DNA of 64,000 nucleotides from NCBI GenBank assembly GCA_008632985.1, contig QPGO01000246.1, forward strand, positions 1-64,000. Reading direction: 5' to 3'. The position numbers and the translations under genes are program-made. Origin of the DNA: Psammoneis japonica (taxonomy: Eukaryota). Every line of letters begins with the position of its first letter. Positions within the stretch are counted from its first letter, which is position 1. This document shows, piece after piece, positions 1 to 64,000 of the stretch. The notes beneath the pieces are model-generated. The model made no database searches and was not told where the DNA came from. It saw only the letters and a program-made list of their open reading frames with translations.

Positions 1-149
1 TTTGATAGAAGAAACAAAAAGATACATGGTGTATTTTACTAGATTGTTGCGCGTAATCTACAAACATATACACTGAACACCAAGTGACGTCGATGGATAC
101 ATAAAAAATACATCCCATGCTACTCCTCGAATTCGGAACCAACGCGCGG

Positions 150-1110
150 TCCCATTTCTTGAAAATATCCGGTTTGGCCGTGACCACACGGTAAAGAAGG
201 TTAGGGTTGTTTCTAACCCGTGCCAACACCTTGGCCCAAATGCCATCAGGAATCGAATCATGACGCAACAACCGCAAAATGTCTCGCAACATCTCCTGGT
301 CCCTTTCAATCTCAGACACTTGATCCTCGCTAATGCCGTGCCACAAATGGCAGGGATTGACCTTCAAATTTTGCTTCACGCCATCCACTGGGGCCGCCTC
401 CCCACCAACCGCGACACACGCACATCCACGATTGTGTTGTTTTATGCAAGCATTTGTCCGAGGGCTCTTGCACCACCATCTCCAATGCCGTTGCCATCAA
501 GATCAAGAGCATCAATGGATGAGCTTTCGTTCACGCTCCTGACCAACGCTTCAGCTCCGTTTTGCCCAACACGACAATTTGACAGCCTCAAACCTGTCAG
601 TTTGTGTTTTTCATCAACAGTTCGCCAAGACATTCTGCACCTCGATTTCCGATGGAGTTTCCTGAGAGGTCGACCCATTCGAACTCTGCACTCTGTTCCC
701 GGGCTTTGCATGAAGACTTTGCACCATCAGGGCCAATGCTGTTGCAGCTCAGAAAGAGTTCCTTCAGCCGAAAAAGAGAAGGGATGACTTCTGACAAACA
801 CGCTGCACCGTCATCCCCAATGTCGCAGCAAGGCAACCCAAGGACAGACAGCTTTGGGAGCAACAAAAGGGCTCGACAAAAATGTTTCATGCCCTCTGAA
901 TCAAGGTTGCAACCAGTCAAACAAAGGTTTGTTAATTTGCAAAAGGAAGGAAGTTTTCGGCTCAATCACTTGGCACCGTCATTGTCAACTTGCAAGATTT
1001 CCAAGTGATCAACTTCGCTCGGCTTCGTCATGGCCAACACATCTTGCAACCGGCTCATGTTTCCCTCATTTTGCAACCACAGGAGATGTGTCAAATGCAA
1101 CAAGCACACA
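150..1110 (-). pseudogene. RNI-like leucine-rich-repeat (NLRC3/NOD3-like) protein, copy 1, frameshifted
   Basis: ORF fragments in different frames: 597-965 (LTNLCLTGCNLDSEGMKHF, LGLPCCDIGDDGAACL, LFLSCNSIGPDGAKS) and 442-711 (LDLDGNGIGDGGARALGQML). C-terminal IPDGIWAKVLARV..NPNLLYRVV-type tail near 180-260. Boundaries approximate. Confidence 0.8.
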
Positions 1111-1299
1111 ACAGCATTGAGCTTGCCCAAAACTCGTGAAAAAATGGGGCTGGCAGTCGAGTTTGTGGCGGCATGATGGGGTGCGATGCCGTGGTGGCTC
1201 TGTCAGAATTTGCCAGTCATGCACACGCAGAAACTGCACCCACGTCTTGGATTTTGACAGAGTCGAACCGGTCAATTCTGCTTTCTAGCTGGAGCAGCC

Positions 1300-1745
1300 G
1301 CAGCAGCAGCAGCTGGTCTTGTGGGTCCTGCAGCAGAGTGCAATTGCAGCAGCAAAGTGGCATTTGAAGTCTCTTCTGTCTAGTTGCAAAACAAGATCCA
1401 ATGCACAGCAAAGTGCAGCATCACTTGCACAAAACAGGGACAACACGACTCCACTCTCTCTCCAGCGTCCTCTCAGCCACCAACAAAAGCAGGTCAACAT
1501 TTTGCCTCACGGCTGCAGCATTTGTTTAAAGGGCAGCTTGGTGCCATTGCACCAGCTGGTGTCTTGCCTTGATGTGGTCCTTGGGGCTCAGATTTCACAG
1601 CCAGAGCATCTGTGCCGCCAACTTGATGCACAAAAATGCGAGCAAAAAGAGGGCCCCTCTTGAGCTGGCACGCTCAGCTCCTCTTCTGGCACTGCTGTGG
1701 AGTGCTGAAGGACCACTTGAATGTTTTTTTGGATGCAGCTGGTGC
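1300..1745 (-). pseudogene. Eroded 3' fragment of the 'VRF..RGLE' gene, paralogous to 7328-7620
   Basis: Aligns by eye to 7240-7620; ORF 1588-1779 KNIQVVLQHSTAVPEEELS vs KNIQTVVQHSAVLPEEELS. Confidence 0.8.
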
Positions 1746-1749
1746 ACAG

Positions 1750-4700
1750 CTGTGTGTCATCATGGCCAACTAACCCCACTCCCAGTGTGAGCCATTCAGC
1801 GGCTCACATCACGCGAAGTTGCGGGTGTCTCAGGTGGTTTGGGTCAAACCAAAAAGACCCAACAGACAACAGGCAAAAATGTGCAAAACAATGAGATGTC
1901 TGCAAAAACTTGGCATCAGTCAATGCAGTGGCATCTGTTTGAGACAGTGCAAGCTCTTGACTTTGGAAGTTTGCTTTGCTCTTTTGTGTCATTTTTGCAA
2001 TCACAGCAAGGGCAAAAGGAGCCAAAATTCTCTTGGACTCCTGTGCAAGTTGTGCAATTTCTGCCATGTGTGCAATTTGCAATGTGGCTGCTGATGCAGT
2101 TTGAATCCTGCTGCTGACCCTGGTCCAACACAAAACACACAACACCTCTGACAAGGAACTCTGCAGCCAACTTTTGTTTGCTCCATTTGAGACAAAATGG
2201 AGAGGCAGCAGTGCTGCCACACAATTTGATTTCAGAAAGGTCTCAGCACTTGTCACATGCTTCTTCCAACCAACCATTCAACAGCTGCTGAGCTCTCTTG
2301 ATGTCTCAAATGTTCCCTGATTTTGAGCCAAGACAAAGGGTTTGCTTGTGAAGCACATCTTTCTTGTCATTTTGTGTGCATCCTTGCCACTGCATCCTTC
2401 TGTTGGAAAATGCTTGAGCCGTCTTCTTTGATGAAAAGTGCCACAAGATTCTTCCCCATGGTGGAAAACCTTTGCTGTGCAGCAACTCAAATGGTGCTCA
2501 CTGGTTCTTGTCCACAATGGCTTTCAGAAGCAGACTCACACTCTCCAGCACTTGGAGTGCTCCCATGCAAGAAGATGAGCAGCACTGCCAAGAAGCAGCA
2601 CCTGCCTTGAACAAAGAGTTTTCACACACATGTTTCTGCCTGGGGTGTGTCCATCCCATCAATTGACAATGATCTTCAACAACATCTGCGCCAGCCCCTG
2701 TGAAACTTGCATGGTGTGAGAAAAAGTGAAAAGGTTTCGGACCAGCGAGAGTGTGAGAGGCAGCCACCATCTTGCTCACATCCAGGGTGATGATGATGCT
2801 CTCACAACTTGTGCGAGCACCAAGAAAGACAGCCTCCTGCAAACTGTTGTGGCACTTCTGCAAGATGTGTGCTGAGTTGGGACAACAAATGGTGTCTCTC
2901 AAAGGTGCCAACCAAACTGCTCTCAACCATGGCCACCTCACTGCCACCTCACTTGCAAAACACTGCTCATGAGGAGCCAATTTGTTTCAAGTCATTGGAG
3001 CAGCCAAGCATTCACTTGCACTGTGCTTGAAGAACAAGCGCACAAATGAAAGCAGAGCAAGGTGCGAAAAGTGGAAATTGTGAGATTAAATTTTGCTCTG
3101 TGATTTTTGGTTTGTCCGAATGAGTTCTCAATGGCCCAGAGCTTCTGCACTGCTTCTGCAGACAAAAAGCCTTTTGGAGAATGCAGTCATGACAACAGAT
3201 TGTCCGAACACAACTGGCGCTGACACACAAGATGTCAACATCATCCATTGATCGTGTTTGCAATTTTTGACTTCTGATCAACTCTGTGTGATCGTTCTGT
3301 CCTTCGCACGCATCCACGATTGTGGCGCGATTGACAGCACAAGTTGTGCGTGATTTTGCAAATGTGCGTGCCGGCATCATGGCAGTTGCGTGCTGCACAC
3401 TGCAGCTTCTGTTTGCATTGGATGCTTGCTCTGCAAAACCATGGCAAAAAGTCTTTGAAGTTGTTGAGAGAGAACCTGATGATGCTCAAAGTCTGTGTGT
3501 TGCCAAGAAGACTGTCCAGGGGACTGGCTGGCCATCACATGCCATCTCATGCCACACAGGAGTGGGATCTGTGAAACAAATGCAGGAGCACCACAACAAC
3601 AAAATGCTGTTGTAAATTGCTTCAAACTGTGACAAACACAACAACCTCATCAAACAATCACAGCTGCCCACAAGCCAGTTCAGTGCTCTCTCATTTGACG
3701 GCAGCTCAGTTCCTGTGCCTTGACTCTGTCATCACAAACAAAGCATCATCATTCCACAAATGCAAACACCAAACCCAAGACTGGCACATTGCACACCCCA
3801 TCCAGAACCATGCCAGTTCAAGAAGCCCTCCCACTCAGACAAATTGAAACATCCCTTGAAGCATGGATCATCAATCCACTCAATTGGGTGCAACCAAACA
3901 TGGTGGGTTCAAAGGAGACACATCTGCTTGCAGAAATCAACTTGCACAAACAAAAGGCAAAGGGGAAATGAGCGGCATTTGTTGCAAGTTGGGCACATCA
4001 CAGGGACAATTGCAAGCACTGCTTTGAGAAAGGAACACAAGTCAGAGAGTTTGGCGACTTCAGGGAGCATCTGAAGGAAGTCCAGAAGTTTTTGATGCAA
4101 CAGGCATCCAACCCATTTGTGACAAAACATGAAAACAAGAGATGGAGAATGATCAGATGCAACACTCAGTCACCAAGCTGAAGCAACAAGCTGGCCAGAT
4201 GGGGCTGGCATGATCAAAAAACAAGTCAACATTGGCTGAGCAGATCTTCAATGGATTTTGGGGAGCAGCAAGAAGTGCTTTTGGAACAATGTTGTTTTCA
4301 ATGGCTGGCGGCCCCTGAACATGCCACTGAAGAGCAGAGGTTTGTTTGATGCTGGATTTTGCAACCAAAGAAGCATCAGCAGGCATCTTGGCATGTTTCT
4401 TTGAGAACATGCTGGCGCTGAAACCAGTGCTGTGGCCTTTCCTGGTTTCACAAAAAACGATGCAATTCTGCTGTTTGGGGCCAAGCAGCAACATGCTTGC
4501 CATTTTGCAAAGTGCAGTCAAGAAGAAAGCAATGAAGACACTGACTTTGGCAATGAAAAGCACATTGACAAAGATGAATCCATGACAGCAGGTGAATGCA
4601 AAACAGCCACAAAAGACACCATTGAGAGCCAAGCCATGAGATGCATCAAGCAAGCAATTGGACACGCCCAAAACATGGCCTTTGTGCAGATGACAGTTGC

Positions 4701-5700
4701 AAGTGATGTTTCCACAAGGAAGGTGCTTGTTTGTGCACTCCTGAATGCTGTGCACAGCTTGCTCAAAGTGTGGTGCTGTTGGTTGTCAACCATGTTCTGT
4801 TTGTGTGCAGTGCGAACAGTCAAGTTGTTCATGTTGTGTGTTGATTGAGTGCACAGATGACCAAGTTTTGAGGCATGTTTGTTGAGGAGGCAATGTCCCA
4901 TGTGCGGGCTTTGCCTTGCACAACGGCTCCAGAGGACGGAAGACTTGGAAGGGAGCAACAAGTTGCCAGAACCATTCAATGACCACAGCAAGCCCTCATG
5001 CTTGTGTGGCATGCTGTGGCAATGCTTGCAGATTGATGGCATCTGCTGCAAGAGAGACGTGGGCCTCTTTTTGTCATCATCAGCCTCATTTTTCTGATGG
5101 TGTGTTGGCGCGCACCACAGGCAGTGCATGCTTCACTCATGCACCCACAACTGCACAGCATGGATGAAGTCTGTCTCAGTCTGCATGACCAAACTGGCAT
5201 GTGGGTGTTGAGGAGGAGACCCTTCTGGTGAGGGATTTTGCAGTGGATCCATGCACATGAGAAAGAGCTGGGGGTGTTTCATGAGCTGGGCTCATCATGT
5301 GAGAGATCAGGGAACATTGACATGTGGTCTGACTTGCAACTTTGATTTGCCCATTCAAAGACCATGACGAGAAGATGATGCATCTGTTTGCAGGACTGTG
5401 TTGGTCAGTCCAGAGGTTGTGCCAGTGTGCAACCGTGTTGTCATGGTCAAACAATGGCCTGCACTTGTGGAGTCTGATTGAAGCTGCACTGCAGTGTCCT
5501 GGCAAGTGCCTTTGCACTTTAGATGTGCAAAGGCATTTCAACTGCATTTGCAGAAGAGGCAGCATTGTTGGTGAATCAAAGAAAGGGAGTGATTGCAATG
5601 GATGGCTTGTGTGGAAGAACAGAGCATCAGTCGGTTGCCAGACACTGCAAACAGGCAAGCAGGGACAATGCCTCCACTGCACAAAGAATGGTCTTTGGTT
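1750..5700. pseudogene. Heavily eroded coding remnants of unknown identity (TpA/CpG-depleted)
   Basis: Protein-like fragments (e.g. 4432-4848, 5342-5746, 1804-2277) rich in Cys/His and lacking Tyr. No domain recognised. Confidence 0.45.
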
Positions 5701-5864
5701 GAAACCAAAAGACACACAGTGCATTGTGCCAGATTGTTCTGGGTGATCTGCAAACATGCAATGAACACCAAGTGACATTGATGGATGCATCTCATGTGCA
5801 TCCCCCCACACTCCTCAAATTTGGAGCCAATGCGTGGCTCATGCTGCCATGTGAACAAAGCAAC

Positions 5865-6830
5865 ATCCTTTTCTTGAGAACATCCAGTTTGGCCTTGACT
5901 GCATGGAAAAGAAGGTTGGGGTTGTGGCCAACCCATGCCAACATCTTGGCCCAAATGCCATCAGAAATCCAATCATGATGCAGCAACTGCAAAATGTCCC
6001 ACAACATCTCTCCTGGTCCCCTTCAATCTCAGATGCTTGATCCTTGCCAATGTCATGCCACAAAATGCAGGGAATGACATTGTGACATTCAAGCTGTCCC
6101 CCTTTTCTCCAAAAGAGGCACACAACACAATCACAAATGTGATTTTGTTGTTGTGCTCAAGCATTTGTCCAAGGGCTCTTGCACCACCATCTCCAGTGTC
6201 GTTGTCATCAAGACAAAGACTGTCAATGAATGTGCTTTCTTCCATGCTCCTGGCCAACATTTTGGCTCTCTTTTGACCAATGCAACAATCAGCAAGGCAC
6301 AAACCTGTCAGTTTGCAATGTTTTGTCAACAGCTCTCACCAAGACATTCTGCACCTTCATCTCCGATTGAGTTTCCTGTGAGGTCGACACTTTCGATTTC
6401 TGCACTCTGTTCAAGCACTTTGCACAAGGACTTTGCACCCTCAGGGCCAACGCCATTGTGGTTGAGCACAAGTTTCTCCAACCGAAAAAGAAAAGGGGTG
6501 ACTTTCGACAAACACTTGATGCCATCATCCCCAATCTTGTTGGATCAAGCACACACAGCTTTGGGAGGAGTGACCGAAGGGCTCGAGACAAACAGTCCAT
6601 TCCCTCTGAACCAGTGGCACAAGCAATCAAATGAAGGTTCATCAATTTGCAAAAGGAGGGAAGAACATGGCCCAATTGCTTGACACCTTTGACATCAATT
6701 TCTTCAGCCAAGATGAAGATGCTGTCGACCCAGCTCGGGTTCGTTTCAGCAAACACATCTTCTTGCAACCAATGCAATTCCCTCATTGCAACTGCAGGAG
6801 ACTTGTCAAATGCAATGAGCACAAAACGGC
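5865..6830 (-). pseudogene. RNI-like LRR protein, copy 2, frameshifted and eroded
   Basis: Fragments 6326-6511 (LVLNHNGVGPEGAKSL, VDLTGNSIGDEGAECL), 5973-6329 (LCLDDNDTGDGGARALGQML) and 5792-6007 (ISDGIWAKMLAWVGHNPNLLFH). Confidence 0.8.
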
Positions 6831-7076
6831 GTTAAGCTTACACTCAAACGTCGTTGAAAGAATGGGACTGAGATTTCTGTTGTGTTGCCGGGGGGGGGGG
6901 CAGGGGACGTGGGGACCGAGGACGCGGGACGCGGCGGCGAACAATCAGTCTCGCGACACCGGCACATCTCCACTCTCCATCGTGAGTCTGTCAAAATTTG
7001 TCAGTCGTGCGTCGTGCGGTAGTAAGTCCTTCACTCTAATAGCTACTAGAGAGCTAGCTACTAGAATGCCATTTGT

Positions 7077-7371
7077 AGCAGCAGAGTGACATTTGAAGTC
7101 TCTTCTATCTACCGGTAGTAACAAAATACGATCTAATATGGCAAAGTGTAGTGTCACTTGCATATAAAACAGGAACAACGCGATTGTACTCTAACGTCCT
7201 CTCAACGAAAGCGGCTCGAGATTTTGCTGCGCGGGCAGCAAAGTGATATTTGAAGTCTCTTCTAATAAGATCTAATATAGCAAAGTGTAGTGTCACTTGC
7301 ATAAAACAGGAACAACACGATTGTACTCTAACGTCCTCTCAACGAAAGCGGCTCGAGATTTTGCTGCGCGG
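7077..7371. repeat. ~140-160 bp tandem duplication covering the stop codon and 3' UTR of the RGLE gene
   Basis: gcaaagtgtagtgtcacttgcat...gattgtactctaacgtcctctcaacgaaagcggctcgagattttgctgcgcgg occurs at ~7141-7234 and ~7280-7371. Confidence 0.9.
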
Positions 7372-8157
7372 CTGCAGCATTCGTTCGAAGGGTAGCTTGA
7401 CACCGTTGCGCCAACTGGTGTCTTGTTTTGAGATAGTCCATTCTATTGTATTTGGGTAGAGATTTCACAGCCAGAGCGTCTGCGTCCCCAACTTGACGTG
7501 CGAGCACACGAGCCAAGAAGGATTGCTCCTGGGCCAGAATGCTCAGCTCCTCTTCTGGCAGTACCGCGGAGTGTTGAACGACCGTTTGGATGTTTTTAGA
7601 TGCGGCTTGACTGCGAACTTGACCGTGTAGTTTAGAAATCCATCGCTCCAAGCCTCGACGCGAATGAGCATGTGTACAGTATTGAATCAAGCCCTGTGAA
7701 CGAAACAAGGACGGAATTAGCAAAAAATGAACTCGTCTTTATTTATCATGACTTTCTCTCGCACAAAAACCCGACTTACCGCATCAGCAGATACTTGGTC
7801 GAGTGAAGTATTCTCGTTCTCAGTTGTTATGAATCGTCGAGTGTTGTTGAATGATTGGTCCAATCCAAGAAGCAGTCGATCATCTCGTCGCTGTCTCGAC
7901 TCTCGACAAATCTGACGAGCTGTTGCTTTGAATGCATAATAATCCTCTTCTTGCCACCAAATAGCGGCCCTTTCGGTCGCTGACATTTCATCAAGTGGAG
8001 CAACATACTCCAACACTTGACAAGAAGGAGCAAACCGAACGGTACTTTTTCGTTCGTGATTTGCGTCAATCACATCCAAGCGTTTCGTACCAGTCTCATT
8101 CTCATCTCGATCAGCGACCTCATGATGCACAGGTGGAGAACTACTCATCATGAACAT
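7328..8157 (-). CDS. Diatom-type hypothetical protein ('VRF..W..DY..RGLE' family); 2 exons, intron 7694-7779
   Basis: Exon 1 has STVRFAPS..IWWQEEDY; a GTAAG..CAG intron joins it in frame to exon 2 GLIQYCTHAHSRRGLERW..VGDADA. Confidence 0.8.
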
Positions 8158-9021
8158 AATGTGGGCGGTACGTTATTATCTGTTCTTTAGTTGCGCAAGT
8201 CTCAGTCTTCGCTTCATGTTGTGTTTGTTGAATGTGCTTCGCTCTTCCAACACGACACAACAAGCTTCACCCCCAACAGAGATCACCGTAGGCGCTGGTA
8301 TTGGTTCTACAGTGATTCGTCTCCGAAATTTGATAGTATCGTTCAATGAGCAGAAAAAAATAGCGAACGCTAGGTAAAAATTATCGTTACTTCATGAGCT
8401 TATGACCAATAACACGTCTGCTCTAAATAAATTTTTATGTATTTTATACAGAATATGTATGTCTCAATTTTTTAGTATCGCTTTTTAGGTACTATGATAA
8501 TGGATCATTGGGGGACGACGTCTGTTCGCAAGCCGACTGTTCGCTCCTCACAATATTTCGATGTTTGGCGGCCGTACTTCAAGGCAAAGTCGGTACTACT
8601 TAACTAGCTATTATGATATGCACCAAAAAACACAATATCATGCATGATACTCTAGGGCCCTATCTATCTCGAGAGCACACCTATTCTTTTCCCCTCTAGA
8701 TCTACGAGTATCTGGTAGGAGCAACAAATCAAAACTCGGTTGGACTGCAACATGAAACTGTTACATTTAGTAGGGTCGAAAGATGTGGGGCAGCGACACA
8801 GGCGACACTTCTGTCGGAAGAGATTTTACGACTTGCCGAACAAGCGCTATTTTAGAGATTACAGTAATGGAATACCATATTGATTTGATTAGAAAAGCTA
8901 CTATACGTTATACACTATTGTTAGAGAGAAAGGCTAAATGATTGTTCCACACAAACAAGGATTCCCTCTCGTTATCAGATTGGCAAAACACCACGTGATC
9001 CCGGTCTAACCCGAATCATCG

Positions 9022-14551: not shown

Positions 14552-17082
14552 CAGGTTGATGGGTCGGATTTAATCGAGTTGGTCAATCTTGTTTAAATCC
14601 TGTCAAGAATGACATCCGAGAAGTCGCGGCGGCAAGTCTTCTCCTCTTTTCAGTTGACGTGAATTCGGCGCCTTTCTCCTTGTCCCAATTTGCAATAATC
14701 TCACCAACCTTTGCATCGCTTGTTTGTTCTCTTATGTTCTCTGACTTTGACAGCAGTGCGTCTTGAATTTGCTCTCGTCGTTTGGCCAATTCTTCGTGTC
14801 CAACCACGCTTGCCACCGATGCGTGTTGTTTCAGAATGTTCGAAACCGTCCTTTCAATGTCAAGGAGCTTCTTGATCCCATGCCTGTTGCCGCGCTTGCG
14901 CCGTGTTGGCTCATCATCGTTGGCATTGTCCTCTTCGTCTTCTTCTCCTTCGTCTGGCTTCTCTGGTGAGTCCTCCTCTCCATCACGGCGCTCTGTCATG
15001 AATCCATTGCTTGCGATTGCACAGGCATTTGCCATTGTCTCACTCTTGCCCGTTGATGCCATTAGAGCACCAAGCTTCACAAGTCGCTCATTGTCATGCT
15101 GCGTTGCTGATTGCGAGCAAATCTGCGTCAGAGCGATCATGCGAAAGGAGCGAGCGCGGGGATTGGACCGATCCCAAATGTCAAGATCCCCATTGCGATT
15201 TCGTCAACGACGGGTTGATGGCATGCAGCAAGTGGGTGCGACAATGTTTGCCCAAGGGATTCTCCCGGCACCCCCTTTTGAAGGAATGCGTGGAACTTGG
15301 CAAGGTTGATTTGCCTCTGATGAATTGTGGAAAAAAATGTTCCTGCAGCTGGAGTGATCGTTGCATTCTCGCTTTTCAGAAATCGTGCAACGACTTGACC
15401 CGTTGGTTGCTCGGAGCAAATGGCTTTTGTGATCCGCTCTGTCTTCAGGTGACGATCATTGTGTTTCCTCACCTGTGACATCATTTCCTTGACGAAGAGA
15501 CTGACCATTTCTTCTTTCCGGCTGCGACAAGACAGGTCTTGCATTGAGTTCACCTGATCCTTGAACGCCTTGAACTCACTCATTGTTGCCATGACGAAAG
15601 GATCTCCTCCAAATCTTCGATCATGAGGAAGTGTCGTGCGAGTCGATGGGGAGTCAAATGACCCGGGTCACCAACATTTGGATCCGTGCCTTGATGCCAC
15701 TTCACATGCGGGTTGAGCCATTTCTGTGCCATTCCCGCAAGGAAACAAACGTCCGTGACAATCCAAACCGAGGCGGCAAGCGACAAAAGGTTGGAGGCAA
15801 CTGCACTCTCTTTCTCTTTGGTCGTGGCATTTTTTCTCACTCCTTCAGCGATCAGCTTCAAGAATTCTAGAAACTTCCGAACGAAGCATGCGAGACATCC
15901 GATTGTCCACCATCGAGTGACAAGTGGCTCCTGCATGGCAAGCATCAAGTCCATTGGGGCATCAATCTCAGCAAGCAAGTTGTCTGGCAACTGCCCTGAC
16001 TCTCGAATCTTTGTCCACGCTGCACTGCTGACTTTTTCCATGCGGGCTTGAGTTCCTTGTACAATGTGCAGCACGTGTGAATAGCTGGATCGCATTGCGT
16101 TTGTCCAAACCGCCGTCACCGACATGAGTCTGGACTGGAAGCCGAAATGCCGACTGGACATCATGCATTCCGCAGGAATCCGACGTGGCCCTTTCATGAA
16201 CATTCCACAGTTGGCAAGAGCTGCACCAGCAGATTCTGGTGCACCTTGACCGGAGTCGCACGTTGCTCCCATCATTCGTCGATCGGACTGCCAAGCCGCC
16301 GCAGGCCATGTTTTGTCCCCTTCGCAATGTCTTCACTCTTCTTGCCATTGCAGTGAGGTCTGACCAGAACTGTGCAATTGTTCCATCCTCTGCATTTGAT
16401 TTGTCATCCTCGTCCATGTGCTAAAGAGTCTCACCTCTTGCCCGTTGTGTCCCCCATCAGATTGAACGAATGAAGCGCCTGCCTTGGACATGAGGTTTCC
16501 GAATGCAAGCAACTGCATGTGGCAAGCTGGACAACCCAATTGTCCAATGCAGTGTGAGAAGGGCTGCAACGTGCATCTTTGTGAGCGAAAGCCACTCGAA
16601 ATTGAACTTGCGGCCGTGTTCGTCCTCTTTGCAAAGTGCTTGGATCTCCCTCATGAACGCATGTCGAGCGATTGTTGTCAACAACTCTTGGTCAGGAGTC
16701 AAAATCTGAGGGTGACTCGATGAAAATGAAGCAAACAGAGTCATCGCATTCATTGCAGGTGAGTGTTTCCGCCTGCTGCAAAGCTTCTTCATTGCTCGTA
16801 CGACTGCTCTCTCTTGTTTGTAGCGGCCAAGATCTCCCTTCTCGACGAGCTCATGACTGTTCTTGCTGCTCTCTTCTTTTGCCATGCACGCGGATGGATT
16901 GCTCGGTTGGCTGCAACGACCAGTGGAGAGAAGCATTTGGTTGGCCTTGTTGACGGGAAAGAAGCCAACCTGATCGACCGGGAATGGCACGTCAGAACAT
17001 GTCGACTTCCAGGACTCCTGGAGCATCTTGAATGCTTCGTCGAAATTCGTTGGAGCTCTCAGCGTTTTATTTGGCTCCTGTT

Positions 17083-17285
17083 GTTCACCTGGATTGGGCG
17101 TTGTTGGACGCGGTCTTTTTGGGTTGGGCTCGTCGTCTTGATGATTCGTTGTCGGCGCAACCTTCGCCGGAGTGCGTTTGATTTCACCTGGACTGGGCTT
17201 TGCTGGACGCAGTCTTTTTGGTTTGGGCTCGTCGTCTTGGTCATTCTTCTTTGTCGGCGCAACCTTCGCCAGAGTCCGTTTGAGC
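17083..17285 (-). repeat. ~102-bp tandem repeat in the transposase N-terminal region (NLS-like)
   Basis: AKVAPTxxxxQDDEPxPKRxRPxxPxPGE occurs twice. Confidence 0.85.
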
Positions 17286-19247
17286 GTTCGACTGGAAGAG
17301 CGGTTGTCCCACATGGCCTGGTAGAAAGACGCATCTTTAGGAACATCAAAGTTGTTTGTAGCTGATGCACAGTGGAATCGAACATTCTTTTCTTCTTTTC
17401 CTTCATTTGTTGTACGGACAGTGACAACCTTTCTGTTGAAGCCAACAGTTGCACCTGACGGCAGCGTCGTTTTGCCATTGACAAAAACCAACTTTCGAGC
17501 TGTTGCTGTGTTCAAGATGTTTGCAGCACATTTTGGAAGAGACTTCCCAATGTGTCGGACCCACTCTTCATCTGCCATCCATTGATTGTGCATCTCCGGG
17601 CGTTCGGTTGCTTCAACAAATGCCTCGAAGGCCTCATTCCGGGACGACATCTTCTTCAATTTGTCCCTGCAGCTAAAAGTTTTTTGACATGAGCTCAAAA
17701 ACAGCATTGTCAACAAGTGTGCAAAATTCTTTTAGCTGCCGATGGGCACTTTTCAAGAACGGGGTCGCATCGGCTCTTTGCCCATCATCGTTTGTCGGCT
17801 TCTCCCGTGCTTCAGTGCGAGGCGCGCCAAATTGGAGTGAGCAAAAACGACGAGTCGAGCCAGTCAAGTTTCTTGCGAACCCCAAATTTATTGTTTATTT
17901 CAATTCTATGTGAAGTTTATTGTGAAACGGTTTCTACGGGATCTTGTGCCCACAGATTCTTGTCGAAGTCTAGAATCTCCAGGTCGAAGCGTTTTCCGAT
18001 CGTCCACCCAGAGAGAGGGTGCATTTCCACTTTCCACCGGCATTCTCTGGCACAAAATACGTTAGATGCATCTGATGACATGAAATGGCCACACCTTCTG
18101 GTGGACCACTTGGAGTCTACAAACAACTTTGACATGGGTCATCTTGTGTGGTCATGTCGTCTCCGTTGCCATCTTGCCTTCTTGCAGAGGACACGTGGCT
18201 TCTCTGGCTAGAGGTTGCATGGACTGTGTGCTCCGAACACACCTCCGAAGCACCCTTCTACTGGCTGCTGTAGAAGCGCTCTCTACTGCTAGCTAGAGAG
18301 TAGCCCTAGACTATTTCATAGTTGTCTCTACTCTCTACCGGTAGAGTAAGTGCCGTAAAGGAGCAATGAGATAGATGTTCAGAAAATGACGGTCGGTGGT
18401 CATCAAGACTCAAGAGTCTGTTGCAGTCTTGACCTCATGGTAGAGTACACGTGGCTTTTCCTTTGTTACTTAGGAATGGATACTGAAAGGGTGGTGTTTG
18501 TTAAGTAGGTTTGAGCTGGTTTCTGTGTCTTCGGTCTTGGGGCACTTTTTGTTGTCGGAAACAGGATTGAGTATTCAATTGCGTTGACCTACTTGATCGG
18601 TCATTACGACTAAAAGCATCAGTCTTCTCCTTCCTTATCTATTTGGTCTTGCGGGGCAACTTTTTTGTAATTTTAAGTCTTGCTCAATGTCTTTGCAAGA
18701 CATAGCACTTCGTAGTAAGATTCTGTAGGTTGTACAGCGGTGGTCACAATTCGAATGACTGGCCACGCACGTCGGCTGCGGCGCATTTTTTTGGCGGCGC
18801 ACCAAGCTTGGTGTTCGGTGTTCCATCTCACAACTCAACAAACAGCAACAAACGAAAGAGTGTGTTGCTATTGAAGGCGTTGTCCATTGGTAAGTGTATC
18901 CTTCTGTCCCGTCAATTCAGGTTATCGCTGTGTAAAGGCTGCGTCGCGTCACGTCACATCTCGTTTGGTGAGCCGCTCTGTTTCAACGCGGCGGCGGTCA
19001 TAGGTTCAAGGTCATACGGTTGCGACTGGTGTATGGCTTATCTTTGTTTCCCCATGTGGCTACTTATAAAATAAGTTCGGTTTCCCTTTGGTACTCATAA
19101 GACATATGAGTATTTTGTATCCTTATGGTACTTTTGTAAGATGAAGATTTAGTCATGTGTCTCATCCATACCCTTTCTCGTTTCTCCTCACCGAATTACT
19201 AAGGATTTTTTCGAATCGAGAAAAGTACAGTCCACGCTACGTCCAAG

Positions 19248-27389: not shown

Positions 27390-28404
27390 TCAAATGTATT
27401 TATCCAAGAAGCTTTCAGCACACGGTAATTTTCGGTCTGATTGAAGTAGTTGTATCCATCGAAGCGATTCAATTCACCTTCGATCCAGAGAAGCTCTTTC
27501 TCCACAGGAGCACTACCATGAATGTTCTCAATGTCCTCTGGTGAGGTGAGAGAGTCCTGGCGAACCTGCGCAAAGAACGTGGGAACCTTGATATCACGAA
27601 TAAACGGAAACGGCGACATATCATCCAAGCCAATACCAGCACGCTTCTGCAAGGCTGCTTCAACGCCCTTGACTTCGCCACCTCCAACCATTGGCAGAAC
27701 CTTTTCTGCCATGTACTTCATAGAGATTGGCTGAATACTCGTCATCACTTTCACCTTGTCAAAAATGTCGGGTTCGTTGCTCATGGCTCTAATAGTGGCA
27801 TTCGAACCCTGAAAAGACAAGGCAAACCTGGTATATGAGGTGCATTTTTGTCTACATGTGCATTATCATACCACACTCAGATGTCAAGTTGACGCTAGTA
27901 GCTACTCACCATACACTGGCTGATCAATGCGATGTCCATGTCTTTCAGATTGGCATTGCCGCGGATGTATTCCATGACACCGAAGATATCCTGCCATTCG
28001 AATGCTCCAACGCCAGCCAGTCCACCACTTCCTTCGGCACTTTCACCATGATTGCGGAAATCCATCGAAATCACGTGGTATCCATCGTCGTGTAAGTTCT
28101 TCAGAAGTGGCAAGAACTCAACATGCACGGGAACGAACTGTGCCACAGGCCCTTCAGGAAGGAATCCATATTTGCTGCAATAAAGAGGGTGGTTCATAAC
28201 AGCAAGCTTGTTGGTTTGTCCCTCGGCGGGTACATACCAAGCAGCAAGCTCGGTTCCGTCTTTTGACGGAAACGAGATCTTTTCAAAACCAAGACCATAG
28301 TCGCCGGGAGTCTTGAGCTGCTTGGCCCGGGTGGGACTAGTGAACAGCTGTGCCAAGGTTTCTGCCGGTGGAGCCTGAGGAGTGTCCTCCAGAGAGTCGG
28401 TCAT
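27390..28404 (-). CDS. Alpha/beta hydrolase with a Cys at the nucleophile elbow; intron 27809-27909; probable terminal frameshift
   Basis: FPSKDGTELAAWYVPA, DFRNHGES, spliced ISQCM|GSNA, IKVPT, KELLWIEG..RFDGYNYF. Confidence 0.85.
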
Positions 28405-28579
28405 GATGCCTGGTGGATATGCAACGAGCAGAATGAAGACGACTTCATTCGACGTGCTGATTGATGTGCTGAAAAAGGAAAAAGATACGAGCGACGCGAA
28501 ATAGCGAGCACATGCCGAAAGCACAGCGATCGACCCGCCGCTTGCGCGTCGCGATCCGCCCTCGCGAGGTGCTGAAAAG

Positions 28580-31500
28580 ATTGTGTCGCCCATCATGACA
28601 CAAGGCTTTCATGCTCTGTCTCAACCTCTGGCATCTGTCACTTTTGTCTCAGTCTGGTGCTTGCAGAGGGACAGACCAGTGCCATCTTCCTGTGCTGCAG
28701 GCACCGAGGATGGAACATGGGGCTGCATTCCCCGCGTGCAAAGATGGGCTGTGCCCTCGCTGTCACGACGCTCACCATTCTCGCATCAACAAAGCTGTGC
28801 ACTTCTGAGTGTGGTTTTTGCCATTTGTCTGCAGCAAGCCACGTCTCTGCTGTGCTTGACGCTGCCTTTGTTCTGGCTTCTTTGTTGCCGGGCAGTGCAT
28901 CCACAGCACACACAGTGCCACAAAAGGAGCAAAACGACATCGTTGTTCAAGGCAAGGCTTGAAATGCTTGCACTTTTTTTGTGGTCCAGCAGAACCTGCT
29001 CTGGCGCACGCACTGCTTGAGTGTTTGCCACAGCATCTGTCACTGCTCTCTCCCACACTGGCGCTGACCAAGGTGTCTTTGCAGCCACCATCTCTCGACT
29101 TGCCAGAGTCCTCATTGACACTCAGCAAACTGCTGGATTGACCAGGACTTTTTGAGATGTGACACAGGTTGATGGCAGGTTTGTCATGTGTGCTGAGGAA
29201 GGCTGGGCAGCCTTTGCCAATGGTCTGCCAAGCTCACTCATCACACAAATCTCATCATGACAAGAAATGGCCAGCCCACCCTTCTTGCACTGAAGAGCAT
29301 GTTGAGTGAAAAACTTGCATTTTCACATCATGTGTGTGCACAGGTGTGCAATCCAGTGGAGACATGTCACAGTTTCTTCTGCAATCTGACACTTGGCATT
29401 GTGTTTCTGGAAGCCATGTGCGTCTGACATTGCCCGGCCTGTCAGCTTCTGGGTGGAGGTCCAGCCATCCCACATGTGAGCACCAACGCAGGAGCTGGTG
29501 CAGGCTGTGCATCATTTCTGGGATCAATCATGCCAAGTTCCCAGCCCCCCCCCCCAGCCCTGGCATTGCTGTGAGAAGCTCATGTGTTGGGTGGCTTGAG
29601 TCACTGGAATGCTGGAAAATGAGTGAGCAGGTGGGTGGAGGCAAGGGGCAAGAAAAAAACACAACAACAGAGGCCAGAATGCATGAAGGTGAGGAGGATG
29701 ACAAAGAAAGCAGCAGCAACAGAGAGCCTGCAGCAAATGTGCAAAGATTTGCTGAAATGCCAATGAGACGCAAACAATGGCAAAGGATGCTGCAAAATGT
29801 CTTTGTTGCAAATCTTTTGTGAGACTCTCCAAGTTGTCAAGGAAACTTTGGATGCTGCTGACTGTGCAGCAGCTGCAGCTTCAAAGCTCTTCTCATTCAA
29901 AGATTTTTGCTTGTCATCAGTGTTTCCAGAGAGCCGTCAATGGTCACTTGTGTGTGGCTTTGACATGATCCCCTTGGCAGCCAAGGCACCATTTCACGCC
30001 TCTTCTGTGGATCCCTGTGCACCAGGAGCGGCCAGGACTGGAGGTTCAAGAGCCGCCAATGCCTCTGGCAACTGAACTGTGTGACTTGCCAATGCAGTTT
30101 TAACACAGATCAGAAGGAATGAGAATGCGAAGAGATGTCTGGAGAGAAGCCAGCCAGAGAGCTGCAAGCTCAACTCTTGATTTTCCTCTGGGTGGGTGAT
30201 TGTGCAGAGCTGCCCTTGATGTCAGCAGGCCCAAGTCAGTGCCCTCTTTGCTTTTTCTGCTGGGGCAACAGCAAAACAGAAAGTCAGAGCAAGTGGCAGC
30301 AGCAAATTGGTTGGTTCTTGGGGGCTCTCAAATCACCATTTGTCTTTCTCCCAAGTGTCTGGCAGTCTTGGGGCAGGGAAGAGTGTTTCTTCCCCAGACA
30401 CTGGCAAAGTTCAACTTTTCAATGTGCCGCCAGTCAACACATCTCCAAATTCTTGGAGATGAATGTGCACAATGTCAGGAGATCAACTGGAGCTGTTTGG
30501 CCAGATGTGCCAACCCATGTGCATTGGGTGTGAGATGGACTTGTGAACAAGTGGCTGTCCATCACATGTGAGCTGCGTGCTGCTGTGCACTGCACACAAA
30601 CCAGACATGCAGCATGTGTGGCTTTCAGCTGTGCTGTGTGCTTGCTGTGAAAGCAGCACAAATGACACATCACCTGAAGACACTTGCTCAGATGGCACAG
30701 CAAATTAACCTTCCATTGCAGCAAAGGGGCTGCTGGATGCTGTGATCAATTGTGTGGATGAGCCCAAGGTTGGGGTGTTGTGAACAAAGTCAGGGAGCAG
30801 CAATGATGTTGCTTCCTTCCACAACAAGGCCACAGCCAGCCCTGCTTGAGTTTGTTGCTCTCAGGCAACTCATTTTTTGCTCCAAAAGTTGGTTGGACAA
30901 TTGGCAGGCCAGTGCTGCTGTGGTTGCTTTTGCCAGCCCACTTCCCCCAGCAACAAGCATGCCAGGTGCATGGACAGCCCCCTTCATTGCCCAGCTCTTC
31001 ATCTTGTGCACATTTGTGGCTCCAATGAAGCAAGGCAGACAAGCCTGCAACAAGGCCATTTCCCAGCACCACACAGACAAACCTTTTGCATTGCAAGGAG
31101 CGATGTGATTCTCACAGAGAGCTCCATGGCCCGACCTGCTTGTGGTGTGTCTTGGGGGGCAGTGTTGGACAGTTTGCATGCATGGCTTGTGACGACTGGA
31201 CCAATCACCAGCAATTTGCAGCTTGGCATCTGCAAGCAAGAAGGAAAAACACAGGGGGCCAGGATGCTCACTCTGTGACTTGCAGCAGAGTTGCTTTCAA
31301 CCATGTGTGCACTTCTTGTGCCTTGCACATGGTTTCCACTCATCACCAACGTGGCACCCAGTGCTGACAAGACACACTTGAGATGAGCCAATTTCAAGAG
31401 AGCCCAACTTGCCACAAAGGCAATCAGGCCATTGTTGCCAGGCAAGGTGGCTGCTGAAAATTCACTTCCCCCTGCTTTTCTTTTTTTCCCAGAAGGGCTG

Positions 31501-34095
31501 CAATTCCACAAGTCCTGAAAATTGAGCCACTTTCCAATGTTGATTTGCAGATTCATTGTGGAGTCTTCCATCAGAGCATGGGTGCAACATGCATGCTGCC
31601 TGGTGCCCACCCATGGAGGCAAGCTCATCTTCAAATGAGGCACAGAGCAAACCCACGCTGTGGCTGTTCAAAGATGAGGCAGCTCCCAAGTGGCAGCAGA
31701 TTGTGCAACCCTTCTTGCCCAACCCCAAACCATCATGGTGAGAGATGAAACTTGAAGGTGCAGCAACTCAAGCACAAAAGCAAGAGCCCAGAATTTCCTC
31801 ACATGCTCAAGGCTGGAGTCACCAACATGCTCATGTGCTGCTGAGGCAGTTGGCAAAAAATTGCACCCCTCCATGTGTGGGGCCACCTGCTGGCACCAGC
31901 ACATGCACCTGTCAACACAAGGCTTGCATGCTTCCACAACAGTCTTGAAGTGAAGCTCATCATCAAGTCATTGGTGGCAATGCCCCCCCCCCCCACTTCA
32001 GGTTCAAGAAACAACCAAACTGGCTGGCTGGTGCCTGAGAGCATGGCTGCCAATGACACTGAGTTTCCAAGAGACAAGCCTGCAGACAATTTGTTGTTCA
32101 AGACAGTGCCCATGGGAGGGAAGGGTGCAACGCACCCTGCCCTGCTGCACCAAACTGCTTCACAGCTGCAATGAAGGTTCTTTTGCCAGAGCAGGAGGGG
32201 TTGAAAGAAGCCAGAGACATCTTCAAAGGAAGCCAAGCCCCCCAGTTTACAAACACCAAGTCTCCAGCGGCAATGTGCTTGAGCATGTTTCACCACCACA
32301 ATGCTTTTGGTTGGCAACAAACAAGCCACCATTGCAGACAAAAAAGAGAGCTTTGGGAGTGGGCGCCTCTCCACAAGGCAAAAAGCCTTGACCAACTTTT
32401 CTTGGCAGGCACACAGTGTGCATTTCCTTGGCTGTGTGCTTCTTCTGGCTTGACTCATTTGTGTCCTGAATGATCATCTCACAAAACACAACCATGCAGG
32501 TGTTCCTTCAATGAATCAACTGCAAATGTTTTTGAACAGTGCTGCTCCCCCACAGTCTTTTGTTTTTGCTTTGACTGTGCATGATTTGAAATGCTCTTGT
32601 TCAAGGGCTTTGTGGTCATCTGTTGTTTTCTTGACAGCGGGCTCAGAGAAACATCCCTTGCTGAAAAAAAAGCCTCCATGTCAGCCATTTGAGCTGCAAT
32701 GCAGAGCATGTCTTTGGTGTTCAGCACATCATGTTGGGGCTCACACCACCAGCATTGAATGCCTGGGAAATGCCTTGCTTTTCTGTGGTGTGAGTCAGCA
32801 CATTTTTGAGGCCAATGGCAGCATCCTGTCTTGAGTGTGCAACATTGAGAGGGTTTGGTTTGCCAAGTCTGCAAAACAACAAAAATTGGCCACCTGATGT
32901 CTGCCTTTGCAGCCCTCATGATTGTTTGCACTGGCCATGATTGTTTGTGGCCATTGAACCCACCACAAATTGTTGGGGCTGGCCATGGCACAACAGCATC
33001 AAATTGCCAGAGCACTGCACCCATGTCACTTGATTTTTTGTTGAGCACTGCACCCGTCACTTGATTTTTTGTTCTCAAACACCACACAAACCTCCCTTGA
33101 GCTGGCAAACAACTCATCCAAGCTTTGTGCTGCAGACACTCTCTCTCACAGACATGTTTTGCCAAGCAACTCAAGCGCGGCAGCTCAGCTGAGGTGCTGC
33201 CACCTCCTCTCCTCAACCAAAACATCATTTGCGTGTGCACACTGCCATTTGTCTTGATGGCAGTCTTGTGCTCATGAGATGCTCCTGCTTCTTGGTGGAC
33301 GAGATTGTGTGGGCACAATTGGCAAAAGAAGAAAATCTTTTTGACTCAAAGCAGGGGGGGCTGTGCCTTCTCGGTGAACGAGATTGTGTGGGCACAATTG
33401 GCAAAAGAAGAAAATTTTTTGACTCAAAGCAGGGGGGGTTGTGCAGCATTAACTTGCTCTTTTGACAGCCTCACACCAGCCAAAGAGCGGAATTTGGAAA
33501 AGACAGACTTTCTGTCAGTGTCTCTTGGCGTCTCCGCCAAGTCAATGATCATGACAAGCACTGTTCTTGATGATGTCTCTTCGTTGCAATTTGCAAGAAG
33601 TCTTGTTGCAACAGCATCTGCAGAGTCTCTTTCCACACATTTGCCAGGTGCAGAGACCATCAGTGTTGTGAGCAGCTCCAGCAACAAGAAAAGAGCCGTG
33701 AGAACAGCCACCTGGCTTGCGCAAATTTGACGTTTTTCTTTGACCAAGCTGGCTGTCATTGTGTTTCATGATCACTTCTTTGAAAAGACCAGCACAGCTG
33801 CACATGACACATAAAGAGAGAGTGCTCCTCAGAGAGCTCAGCAACAAAGAGAAAAGAAGCACAGGCTTGAACCCGGCACAGCTGCTTTGCTTTTTGAGCC
33901 ACACAGGAGGGCAGAGTTCTCCCGAAAGGAGGCGAAGTGAACCAAATCAATGCTTTGACATGGGGTCACCCATTTCCCACCATTGTTCCCATTGCTTTAC
34001 AAAATTAACAAAATTGTTGGCAACAAACCAACACTGTGTGGTGTCTTGTGGTGGTCTCCAGGTGAGAGTAAAACAAGCTGTGCTCGGTGCTCGAC
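28580..34095. pseudogene. 5.5-kb TpA/CpG-depleted domain with eroded, unidentified coding remnants
   Basis: About 8 TpA seen in ~5.5 kb. Cys/His-rich overlapping ORFs. 33424-33759 has an N-terminal TM-like segment. No TIR or LTR found. Confidence 0.55.
33288..33444. repeat. ~79-bp tandem duplication
   Basis: cttct(t/c)ggtg(g/a)acgagattgtgtgggcacaattggcaaaagaagaaaat..gactcaaagcaggggggg(c/t)tgtgc x2. Confidence 0.92.
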
Positions 34096-34343
34096 AGATG
34101 GGGGGGGGGGGGCGGGTGATGCGAGATGCGATGGGCGCGCGGCGAGATGAAGTGAACGACGTCAACGACCTGACGTCACAGTTTCAGTTGGAGGGAAAAA
34201 ACGAACGAAAAAAAACCGCGACGTCGCGGGGCGAGAATAAGCATAATGATGAGCAATGAGGCAGGGGGAATAAAGAACACTTTCTCTCCTCACTGGCACT
34301 GCCAGAGGACGACAAAACAAAAAGATCGATTAGGAAAAACCCA

Positions 34344-39417: not shown

Positions 39418-40749
39418 GTTGACGGCTAACAAAAAAGGAAAGAGAAAGGAACTGATGGGACTGCTAAACAGTAAAGTGGTGTGTCGAAAAGGGGAAGGGG
39501 AAGAGATGAACGGTGAACAAAGAGAAGTTGTTCTTTTGTCAAATACCCCGACGCATTCTCACACTCACTTCTCTTGGGCGTGACCCTCCTTTTAGCCAAT
39601 CACATCTCGTGAAAAAATCTGGACAGATGACCAAAGAAGGGACATTTGGTAAGTATCAGATTGAATGAGAAAACATGATTAGAAATCGCTCCCAGGTCAC
39701 TTTCGACGTGAAGTGAGGGCACAAATACACAGCTGTAGGTATTGGCGGGAAAAACGAATCCAAACACGTTGGGTCACATCGGTATTTAACAAATTTTCAA
39801 AATTACTGGGGCATATATAGAGTTTATTTATAGAAGGAGATAGTAAAGATTTCCCGCCATTTTGATACGGCGCTGTTCGTGGTATCGACAAAATTTTTCT
39901 TCGTCAGCTATGTGGGTGGATTTATGCCCGCGGTCTTTTCATCTACCAAACCCTGTGTGTGTCCACCTCACCGTTTTGGTCGCGGCAAAAGTGACCGACA
40001 CATTGATCTCTTGTTGGGACTCAATCTTCTCTTACTTGTACGGATGAAACAGAACAGTGTGATCAAAGACGCAGTGCCGCTTCCCCGAATTACAATGTCT
40101 CTTTTGATATGACATGTCCGAGTCCAGTCGAGATCTGGTAGTCCCGGTGGCTTCCGCCACACGATGAAGTAAGCACACAGAATTGGGCGACCTGCACACA
40201 AGACGGTTGGGCCTGACGTCCAAAGTTCAACATCCTCATGCAGAAGAATGTTGGAGGCTCCGTTCAAAATCACGGTGCTTTGGTGCCAACCTCCAGCAGT
40301 AAGTAGGAACTAGAGAGTAGAGAGAGCGAGGCGAAAGGCACCACCCACCTGACCCGCGTCACAGAGAGTGCCTGAACAAAAGGCCAAAACTTACGAAAGC
40401 GAAAAGCGTGGTATCATAGCGAAAAATCAGATGATACGAACGGTGCTCTACCTACTATGACATAACTTTTAGTATCCCTACTTACTGCTCTTCTTTAGCT
40501 ACTAGTACCGTAGCTCTAGAGTAGAGTGTTGGAAGCAGCGCGACGATCACGGGACTCACCACAAACTGCTTTTCGTGGGCCGCGTCCACATCGCGCACAC
40601 CGCGGGAGCGTCGACGACGCGACGACACGGAACACGGACGCGATTGGAGATTGGAGCGCAGGCGGTGGATGCGGTGCCGCAGCAATCAACAACAGCAACA
40701 GCCCAAGTTCAGACCACCGTACTTCTGCTCGTTTTAGGTCTCATTCACC

Positions 40750-56322: not shown

Positions 56323-56599
56323 TGACTATATGAAATAGATTGTTTATTGTATTGCACTCTTAACTCTTCGACCTGGCCGGTAACGATGAGACCGCCATGG
56401 CTCAGACCGAAAGGCCGAATATCTTTCGGAATGTATTTTTAATTTATTCATATAAAATTTTAAAAGCAATAAAATATGAATGAAGATACAAATTATCTCT
56501 CTCCCGATGATAGTGACAGCGTTGGATTCGACCAAAATTTCAAAAAAAGTGCGGGAAAACACACGCAAATTTTTCAGTAAAAACAAGTAAAAGCTCAAA

Positions 56600-57900: not shown

Positions 57901-58471
57901 CACCGGTACATGGCTGGAACAATCCGTCCATCCGCCTGTCCGCTCGCTCGCTTAACCGGGACCATCACTGATCTGCCTCGTTTAACAGGGGCGTCGCCTA
58001 TCTTTATATTCACATACACCGATGAATGATAGTTAAAGGTTTCTTTGGTGTCGGCGATCATTTGCCTTGACTGAGATTATGGATATAAACCAAATTATGA
58101 AAGGGCAGTTTAATTGGATAAAAATCATCTGAAAGCATTTAAAGGAAAAGGTCATTATGAATGACAAGAGTGTTCTCATGTCGAAGAACGCTGTTGAAGT
58201 CGTGTGTAATTTGGCAGTAGAATTCTACGCGGTAAAGAACAATCTCGTGAGAACATACCAACATTCTACGCTCCTGGCAAATGATGTCACAATTCTAACA
58301 CTTTCCATTGGTTCCCTCGCGTGCAATCCTCGTCTTTTTGCGAAGGCGGAAACTGGGCAGCGAACTCCATCAATCCGACGACGTTGTACGATTGATGGAA
58401 AGGGTGGCGAAGAACAAATCCGAATCGCTCTCTAACACCAGAGACACGACGCACTCTTCATAAAAATTGTT

Positions 58472-63659: not shown

Positions 63660-64000
63660 GTTCAAAATGTACACCAGTCTCTTTCGCTCAGTGGATGGCA
63701 TTTCCAGAAATATGGTCAAACTCTGCAGGTGCCCATCACATGTTCACACAATTGACAGGGCAAACCCATGGCAAACAACACACAGGAGCAGCAACAACAC
63801 AATGCAGTGGTGGCAAGCAAAGCAAAACTTTCACAGGCATCAGTGAACCATGGACACCAAAAAAAAGTGACTGCCAATGCTGTGAATCTTCCAAGAATGG
63901 CATCATAACAGGTGGTTGACATGGAAAGGAATTTATTTTGGGTGGGGACAAATTTTGCCATGGGTGCCACTGTGCAACAAGAGCTGACAGCATTTGCGTT
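63660..64000. other. Edge of another TpA/CpG-depleted domain
   Basis: TG/CA-rich with few CG or TA; continues past the window end. Confidence 0.55.

Follow-up and report, generated by a model that had tools for sequence, protein, structure and literature searches.

Reciprocal, apparently position-bound loss of TpA and CpG in two copies of a duplicated segment from a diatom

Paralogous copies and the island they straddle

The DNA considered here is a stretch of 64,000 nt (positions 1 to 64,000 of contig QPGO01000246.1, Psammoneis japonica assembly GCA_008632985.1; hereafter the window), near whose left end a segment occurs twice in direct orientation, at 11-1752 and at 5701-7607. The two copies are paralogues, each comprising a leucine-rich repeat (LRR) gene together with the last exon of an adjoining gene that we refer to as gene G, and each lies partly inside and partly outside a long stretch that is strongly depleted in the dinucleotides TA and CG (island 1, 444-6832). 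The distribution of changed and unchanged sequence over these two copies is the subject of the present analysis. All results refer to this single 64-kb window, and the read evidence comes from one study.

A repeat search with blastn divides the duplication into two blocks, in which 11-1152 corresponds to 5701-6870 and 1349-1740 to 7235-7607. Purine/pyrimidine-coded blastn was used beside the plain form for repeat detection; the copies are 86-92% identical in the coded alphabet, as against 70-72% at the nucleotide level, and transitions therefore make up more than half of all differences between them. Differences outside the CG/TA-to-TG/CA kind amount to only ~11-13% at the edges. Copy 1 (11-1752, minus strand) consists of LRR fragments, with an LRR_6 domain recognised by Pfam in 597-965 on the minus strand, and of a decayed last exon of gene G; its TA and CG contents are normal up to ~215-444 and are lost beyond. 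Copy 2 (5701-7607, minus strand) has its decayed LRR part (5701-6870) in the island, and TA and CG are normal rightwards from 6833. The core between the copies (1753-5700) has the lowest CG content and is single-copy within the window.

It is in the unchanged part of copy 2 that gene G can be read. Its last exon is an open frame (7328-7692, minus strand) adjoining an 86-nt intron with GT..AG borders (7693-7778, minus strand) and an upstream exon (7779-8172, minus strand) that is not duplicated. Two public sequencing runs, here called X1 and X2, were compared with the window by exact 31-letter words, X1 being possibly the source sample. Contigs from run X2 cover 7289-8187, and because one of them skips the intron this run, though labelled 'DNA?', probably includes transcripts, and gene G is probably spliced and expressed. 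Run X2 leaves most of island 1 uncovered, and this lack of cover was not used as evidence. The gene G-like counterpart in copy 1 (~1481-1752) contains an in-frame TAA and frameshifting gaps, and the replacements in this island copy of the exon are of Arg by Cys, His or Trp and of Tyr by His. The unchanged part of copy 2 also holds a tandem duplication of ~140-160 nt (7078-7379), present as a single unit in copy 1. Between the two units there are 5 differences in 143 aligned positions, and 14 CG/TA are common to both; these close tandem repeats outside the island are thus unmutated. At the other end of the duplicated region, summed word depth over 1-600 is about threefold that of neighbouring bins, which raises the question of further LRR paralogues; such depth is not copy number, and no claim is made from it.

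Island 1 contains 8 TA (247 expected) and 97 CG (360 expected), where expected dinucleotide counts derive from the rest of the window. TG and CA together number 1456, which brings the total of pyrimidine-purine steps to 1561 against 1550 expected, and the guanine-plus-cytosine (GC) fraction is 0.479 against 0.482 outside. The right edge is sharp, the last 1312 nt before it, to 6832, having zero TA and the density being normal again at 6833; the left edge is soft, TA thinning from ~215 to 444. Loss of CG is graded (observed/expected per 500 nt: 1.00, 0.64, 0.49, 0.26, 0.04 ... 0.24, 0.73, 1.11) and its zone is nested 0.3-1 kb inside the TA-free zone, the island as a whole extending ~1.3 kb to the left and ~1.1 kb to the right of the ~4-kb core. 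A G11 run (6890-6900, plus strand) stands 58 nt outside the sharp right edge and opens a GC-rich stretch of ~95 nt without counterpart in copy 1. Within the core, a short repeat (3062-3336) that is very abundant in the reads keeps its CG (13 CG in 3201-3400) and has a single TA; summed word depth in run X1 is 30878 over 3001-3300 against 50-63 nearby, most X1 contigs there are 90-95% alike, and loose ends fall at 3062-3336. A similar copy occurs in run X2, which is probably RNA-containing. Either this repeat was inserted later, it may be, or it is itself what seeds the island.

Reciprocal asymmetry and the direction of change

Site counts were taken from one pairwise alignment of the copies (1-1800 against 5681-7700) and depend on its parameters. 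The first-pass annotation of this DNA had proposed, from short strings quoted out of both copies, that the duplicates are changed reciprocally, copy 2 at the left edge of the island and copy 1 at the right; all of these strings are present where it placed them, and the alignment bears the proposal out. Within columns 11-260, 23 of the 29 CG/TA of copy 1 (ungapped) are TG/CA in copy 2 and the reverse occurs 0 times, one of the remainder being kept and five being something else. At the right edge (columns 1340-1745) copy 2 has 35 aligned CG/TA, and at 28 of these copy 1 has TG/CA; there is 1 reverse case (4 kept, 3 something else). The binomial probabilities are 2.4e-7 for the left and 1.1e-7 for the right edge, and Fisher's test on the 2x2 arrangement gives 6.8e-14. 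In the two edge regions TG or CA is the product of all 25 TA changes that can be polarised, and likewise of 21 polarised CG sites. Symmetric substitution between the copies, which the annotation had named as one outcome that would speak against it, is not what the edges present (23:0 and 28:1). Its statement that the losing copy is the one lying inside ~260-6830 also holds, with the limits corrected to a soft left edge from ~215 to 444 and a sharp right edge at 6832/6833.

Copy 1 is unchanged over its outer 250-430 nt and copy 2 over its outer 775 nt, though these parts are homologous to changed DNA. Five control repeat pairs in the window have small symmetric counts (1:0, 3:3, 1:2, 2:0 and 0:1), keep their shared CG/TA and have zero CA/TG discordance. 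To judge from these comparisons, change of a copy follows its position in one contiguous island and not its status as a copy.

Both copies lie in the island along the middle of the alignment (columns 261-1115), and both are changed there: CG/TA of copy 1 stands opposite TG/CA of copy 2 at 18 sites (15 CG, 3 TA), the reverse holds at 4, and 8 CG are shared. A further 15 sites in these columns have CA in one copy opposite TG in the other, where ~16 would be expected if ~31 ancestral TA had been converted independently per copy; both copies were therefore changed independently after the duplication. Three lines of evidence bear on polarity. Double differences of the CA-versus-TG kind number 22, against 0-5 in each of seven other double-transition classes, and CA opposite TG favours an ancestral CG or TA because each product is one step from CG or TA, while two steps are needed from TG/CA. 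The gene G exon frame is open outside the island, next to the spliced intron, and decayed inside it. Finally, transitions account for 29 of the 30 run X1 variants listed within the island. In 19 of the 30, CG/TA stands against TG/CA; these 19 include three CA/TG doubles, seven sites at which the reads have CG, two at which the reads have TA and four at which the window has CG; among the 10 listed in the flanks, 3 are transitions (all variant figures rest on these 40 of 185). As read from the double differences, the decayed frame and the read variants, the direction of change is from CG/TA to TG/CA, and read variants of this same kind imply that the process continued after two haplotypes or strains had separated.

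A sequencing or assembly artefact, such as base-calling errors at modified bases, has to be weighed at this point, since systematic error can produce the complete loss of two dinucleotides. However, run X1 contains exact 31-letter words of the island at flank-like depth (50-63 in the island, 60-73 in the flanks, with 78% of the sampled words of 1-9000 present), which argues that the island is no artefact, if not independently so should X1 be the source sample. An X1 contig of 458 nt agrees fully with the island (0 differences), and further ones of 475-817 nt show 5-9 differences. Indels and transversions, moreover, also separate the island copies from their paralogues, and we find an artefact scarcely credible.

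Recombination with an already mutated donor, by unequal crossover, gene conversion or a circular copy with junctions in homologous LRR sequence, would accord with the position of both island 1 edges within the duplicated segment, since homologous exchange could take place there. A single crossover, however, should leave both copies switching at one common point, and 444-1115 is changed in both; CA/TG outcomes in the middle parts are independent; the loss of CG is graded on both sides and not stepped; and the other islands of the window (islands 2-4, below) end in unrelated sequence. Import from a donor is thus very improbable, and in-place action is supported by the CG profile being graded on both sides together with the greater CG loss of the copy nearer the core.

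Further islands and a proposed mechanism

Three more islands were detected in the window: island 2 (14734-17673; 12 TA with 114 expected, 163 CG with 166 expected), island 3 (28503-33811; 4 TA with 205 expected, 64 CG with 299 expected) and island 4 (56589-57906; 1 TA with 51 expected, 34 CG with 74 expected). The ratio of observed to expected TA in islands is 0.00-0.07. Pyrimidine-purine totals remain close to expectation (observed/expected 691/713, 1285/1288 and 334/320 for islands 2, 3 and 4), and GC in the four islands is 0.479-0.509 against 0.482 outside; from these conserved totals and the unchanged GC it follows that CG/TA and TG/CA were interconverted by transitions. Neither blastn nor its purine/pyrimidine-coded form detected kinship among the islands.

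In island 2 ~90% of the TA has gone, with CG undiminished. To judge from this island, TA loss and CG loss are separable, and TA loss probably precedes CG loss. On the minus strand island 2 still carries open reading frames (ORFs) of 424, 250, 176 and 206 amino acids at 14583-17731, with 0.3% Tyr; a change of TA to TG/CA creates no new in-frame stop, hence the survival of frames up to 424 amino acids, while stops are abundant in the CG-depleted islands because CGA becomes TGA. More generally, Tyr makes up 0-0.3% of residues in island ORFs against 2.3% in 11 normal ORFs of the window, and Cys, His and Trp are raised. No Pfam family was recognised in these island 2 frames; the island may be a recently mutated gene or mobile element.

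Several smaller observations concern the islands as a group. Of the 13 TA surviving in islands 1, 3 and 4, 7 stand within TTAA (933, 1527, 3087, 30101, 30706, 33450 and 56896), and the one at 1527 is aligned to TCGA in copy 2; such TTAA-type survivors, instead of having escaped, may have arisen secondarily from a doubly changed CpG. Of the 12 TA left in island 2, 6 follow a G. A possible fifth island (63686-64000) runs to the end of the window, with zero CG from 63686 to 63996 and three TA after 63670. Only four G/C homopolymers of at least 8 occur in the 64 kb, and all are island-associated: the G11 run at 6890-6900, a G13 run 290 nt beyond the right edge of island 3 (34100-34112), and C11 and C12 runs inside island 3 (29545-29555 and 31983-31994). 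Their chance expectation is ~0.01 per window, as a rough estimate only, and they could be element termini, junction filler or polishing artefacts.

The products TG and CA are intermixed, with counts of 687/769, 291/225, 601/616 and 154/145 in islands 1 to 4. A runs test of TG against CA gives z of -0.25, +2.4, -2.3 and -0.85 for the islands in that order and -0.8 to -2.0 for controls. From this intermixing it follows that both strands were mutated; they are evenly mutated, with no strand runs of products beyond controls. This bears on an explanation in which each island is a transcribed unit and R-loops or single strands are the substrate, sharp edges being transcription starts and soft edges termination zones. 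The geometry of the islands lends itself to such an explanation, in that the sharp edge of island 1 (6832) falls at the 5' end of LRR copy 2 on the minus strand, and its soft edge on the 3' side; island 3 has a sharp start beside a divergent gene's 5' end; island 4 begins right after an AT-rich stretch full of TATA-like words; and island 2 coincides with the minus-strand ORF set at 14583-17731. However, TG and CA are without consistent strand bias, and the counts of island 2 (291/225) run opposite to what would be predicted. Mutation bound to transcription units accordingly seems improbable to us.

The first-pass annotation had gone further than the asymmetry itself, in holding that targeting follows a chromatin domain and not homology alone as in repeat-induced point mutation (RIP). 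A directional and position-bound process is what the counts indicate, but the contrast with RIP was drawn too simply, given the mutation of linkers between repeats in Neurospora. A trigger like that of the heterochromatin branch of RIP is therefore to be considered here, by which direct repeats would be sensed and the linker and inner repeat parts mutated, with an effect fading outwards. The TA-free zone (444-6832) is centred at 3638 and the linker (1753-5700) at 3726; with other-type differences of only ~11-13% at the edges, the copies were perhaps alike enough when the process acted; and in Neurospora mutation dependent on DIM-2, DIM-5 and HP1 strikes chiefly the single-copy linker between direct repeats (10.1101/115501). 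Against such a trigger, islands 2, 3 and 4 have no flanking repeats within the window, even purine/pyrimidine-coded; the outer parts of both copies are spared; and short pairs outside the islands (223 nt at 98%, and 143-160 nt) are untouched, though these are perhaps too short to count. On balance we consider a homology trigger unlikely, though it is the serious rival and less improbable than mutation bound to transcription units.

The best explanation, which we favour as rather probable, is a position-bound, directional mutation acting in one contiguous stretch after the duplication, coupled to an inferred silenced domain. A segment with the LRR gene and its neighbour's last exon would have been duplicated in direct orientation around the ~4-kb core, and a process confined to ~215/444-6832 would later have turned TpA and CpG into TpG/CpA by transitions on both strands; each paralogue would thus have been rewritten only over the part within the stretch, yielding the reciprocal pattern. 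Two components may be distinguished. In the first, TpA would be nearly fully erased by A:T-to-G:C change, with edges sharp or nearly so; in the second, CpG would be lost more slowly and in graded fashion, most strongly in the core and less in the paralogue further from it. The stretch may be a domain that is silenced and methylated at cytosines, with its seed in the core and an extent of ~1.1-1.3 kb into both flanks. Deamination of 5-methylcytosine is established chemistry and could in its ordinary form account for the CpG component, while the TpA component would need a separate, undescribed A:T-to-G:C activity. A candidate for that step is a DNA adenine deaminase that prefers a 5' T; another is the oxidation of thymine to a base that mispairs.

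A number of points weigh against this explanation. The repeat-linker-repeat layout of island 1 fits a homology trigger equally well. No repeats of the core were found in the window, even purine/pyrimidine-coded, and a Pfam search of six read-through frames each of 1201-6000 and 28301-34000 returned 0 families, so that the core holds no recognisable transposon domain and no evident seed; the abundant core repeat at 3062-3336, for its part, retains CG. That the island is a chromatin domain, or silenced, is something we infer, and we know of no enzyme for the TpA step in DNA in vivo. The unchanged right edge at 7328-7607 is coding and could have been preserved by selection, yet the noncoding 6833-7288 is also unchanged. 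Polarity, lastly, is internal only, as three protein searches gave no usable relatives for an outgroup: the C-terminal part of copy 1 (2-364, minus strand) had one weak match in 1.84 billion representatives, the gene G last-exon ORF (7328-7738, minus strand) no match among longer proteins, and an island 2 ORF (16457-17731, minus strand) no protein relative. An Atlas search with a further island 2 ORF (15580-16332, minus strand) was without usable match.

It is tempting to speculate that islands of this kind are the work of an undescribed mutator resembling a genome defence, which marks bounded stretches and first erases TpA by A:T-to-G:C change, after which CpG decays. Differences between alleles or strains at the sites in question suggest that such a mutator would still be at work. 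We advance this broader proposal tentatively, as a serious possibility held with less confidence than the position-bound explanation of island 1.

A gene for AP-3 delta adaptin (1360 amino acids, 40738-44820) has best protein matches of 69-77% identity, all of them diatom-named (Ditylum, Bacillariaceae, Cylindrotheca, Nitzschia, Amphora, Fistulifera, Mayamaea and Pseudo-nitzschia), and Pfam recognises ordinary eukaryotic domains in further long, intron-poor ORFs. On these gene contents the window is nuclear diatom DNA. Five island or edge ORFs had no Pfam family, and a tblastn search of the neighbouring genes against the islands matched only the known gene G-like part. Sought as boundary elements, tRNA genes numbered 0 and Rfam families 0 at gathering score, one sub-threshold chance match having been disregarded.

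The value of this locus lies in paralogues that straddle an island edge, so that changed and unchanged states of one sequence stand side by side; the odd composition is therefore an in-place mutational product that arose after duplication, and neither foreign DNA nor a selected composition. Substrate rules, order (probably TA first, CG later) and a reach of ~1.1-1.3 kb are readable from the sequence, and the process is testable. If the proposed mutator is real, it would amount to a non-fungal system resembling RIP, with a chemistry directed at adenine or thymine for which no parallel is known, and an enzyme making A:T-to-G:C changes at TpA in double-stranded chromosomal DNA would be relevant to base-editing work. 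For diatom genomics, transposons and decayed genes in such islands escape gene finders and similarity searches, and TA-free DNA, being without TAA or TAG stops, yields long false ORFs.

Comparison with known systems

A search of the literature, confined to titles and abstract openings, found no account of TA erasure, of joint TA and CG loss, or of RIP-like mutation in diatoms. Among 80 metagenome loci (609 kb) near relatives of AP-3 delta there was no TA-free stretch longer than 310 nt at GC <0.55, a weak negative as these loci are gene-rich and none is from a close relative. To our knowledge, none of the three processes with which the islands can most readily be compared (RIP, CpG decay and the deaminase editing of retro-copies) removes TpA.

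RIP in its RID-dependent branch, from Neurospora and other Pezizomycotina, resembles the present case in its dense, context-specific transitions that destroy coding capacity, act after duplication and strike the copies independently. It makes only C-to-T changes, mostly at CpA, enriching TpA and lowering GC, and mutates both copies over their whole homologous length (in part after the abstract of PMC2621366). The islands differ in having TpA erased via A:T-to-G:C, CpG as the cytosine context, GC unchanged, the outer parts of both copies spared and a diatom as host. An excess of TpA with lowered GC is thus replaced by a deficit (8 TA against 247, with 25 polarised TA sites), and mutation of both copies over the homologous length by one-sided change at each edge (23:0 and 28:1).

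The heterochromatin branch of RIP comes closer in layout. In Neurospora repeat-linker-repeat constructs, a single-copy linker is the main mutation target via DIM-5, HP1 and DIM-2, with spread beyond the repeats (10.1101/115501). Both features recall island 1, which differs in its A:T-to-G:C chemistry at TpA, as does the window in having islands 2, 3 and 4 without flanking repeats.

Decay of CpG through 5-methylcytosine, as in vertebrates, plants and rust fungi, is alike in turning CG into TG/CA with a matching gain, graded across a silent region. Such conversion with its matching gain is seen at the 21 polarised CG sites and in the conserved pyrimidine-purine total. Such decay leaves TpA and other dinucleotides untouched, whereas here TA is erased, its loss being probably earlier, and wider and more complete, than that of CG, and in island 2 TA is lost with CG intact.

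ADAR enzymes convert A to I with a 5'-U preference, and hyper-editing by ADAR and APOBEC would supply A-to-G change beside a 5' T as well as C-to-T change. These enzymes act on RNA or complementary DNA, in strand-specific clusters and with a retro-copy step, whereas the islands have even strands, free of strand-specific runs in the runs test, and affect host genes in place, parts of the host LRR gene and gene G being among the affected DNA. Nor do the islands look like retroelements, as 12 read-through frames of islands 1 and 3 contained 0 Pfam families and no reverse-transcriptase domain. With a TpA branch for which there is no known counterpart, and a CpG branch akin to methylation-driven decay, the feature is in our view a form of directed hypermutation of silent DNA.

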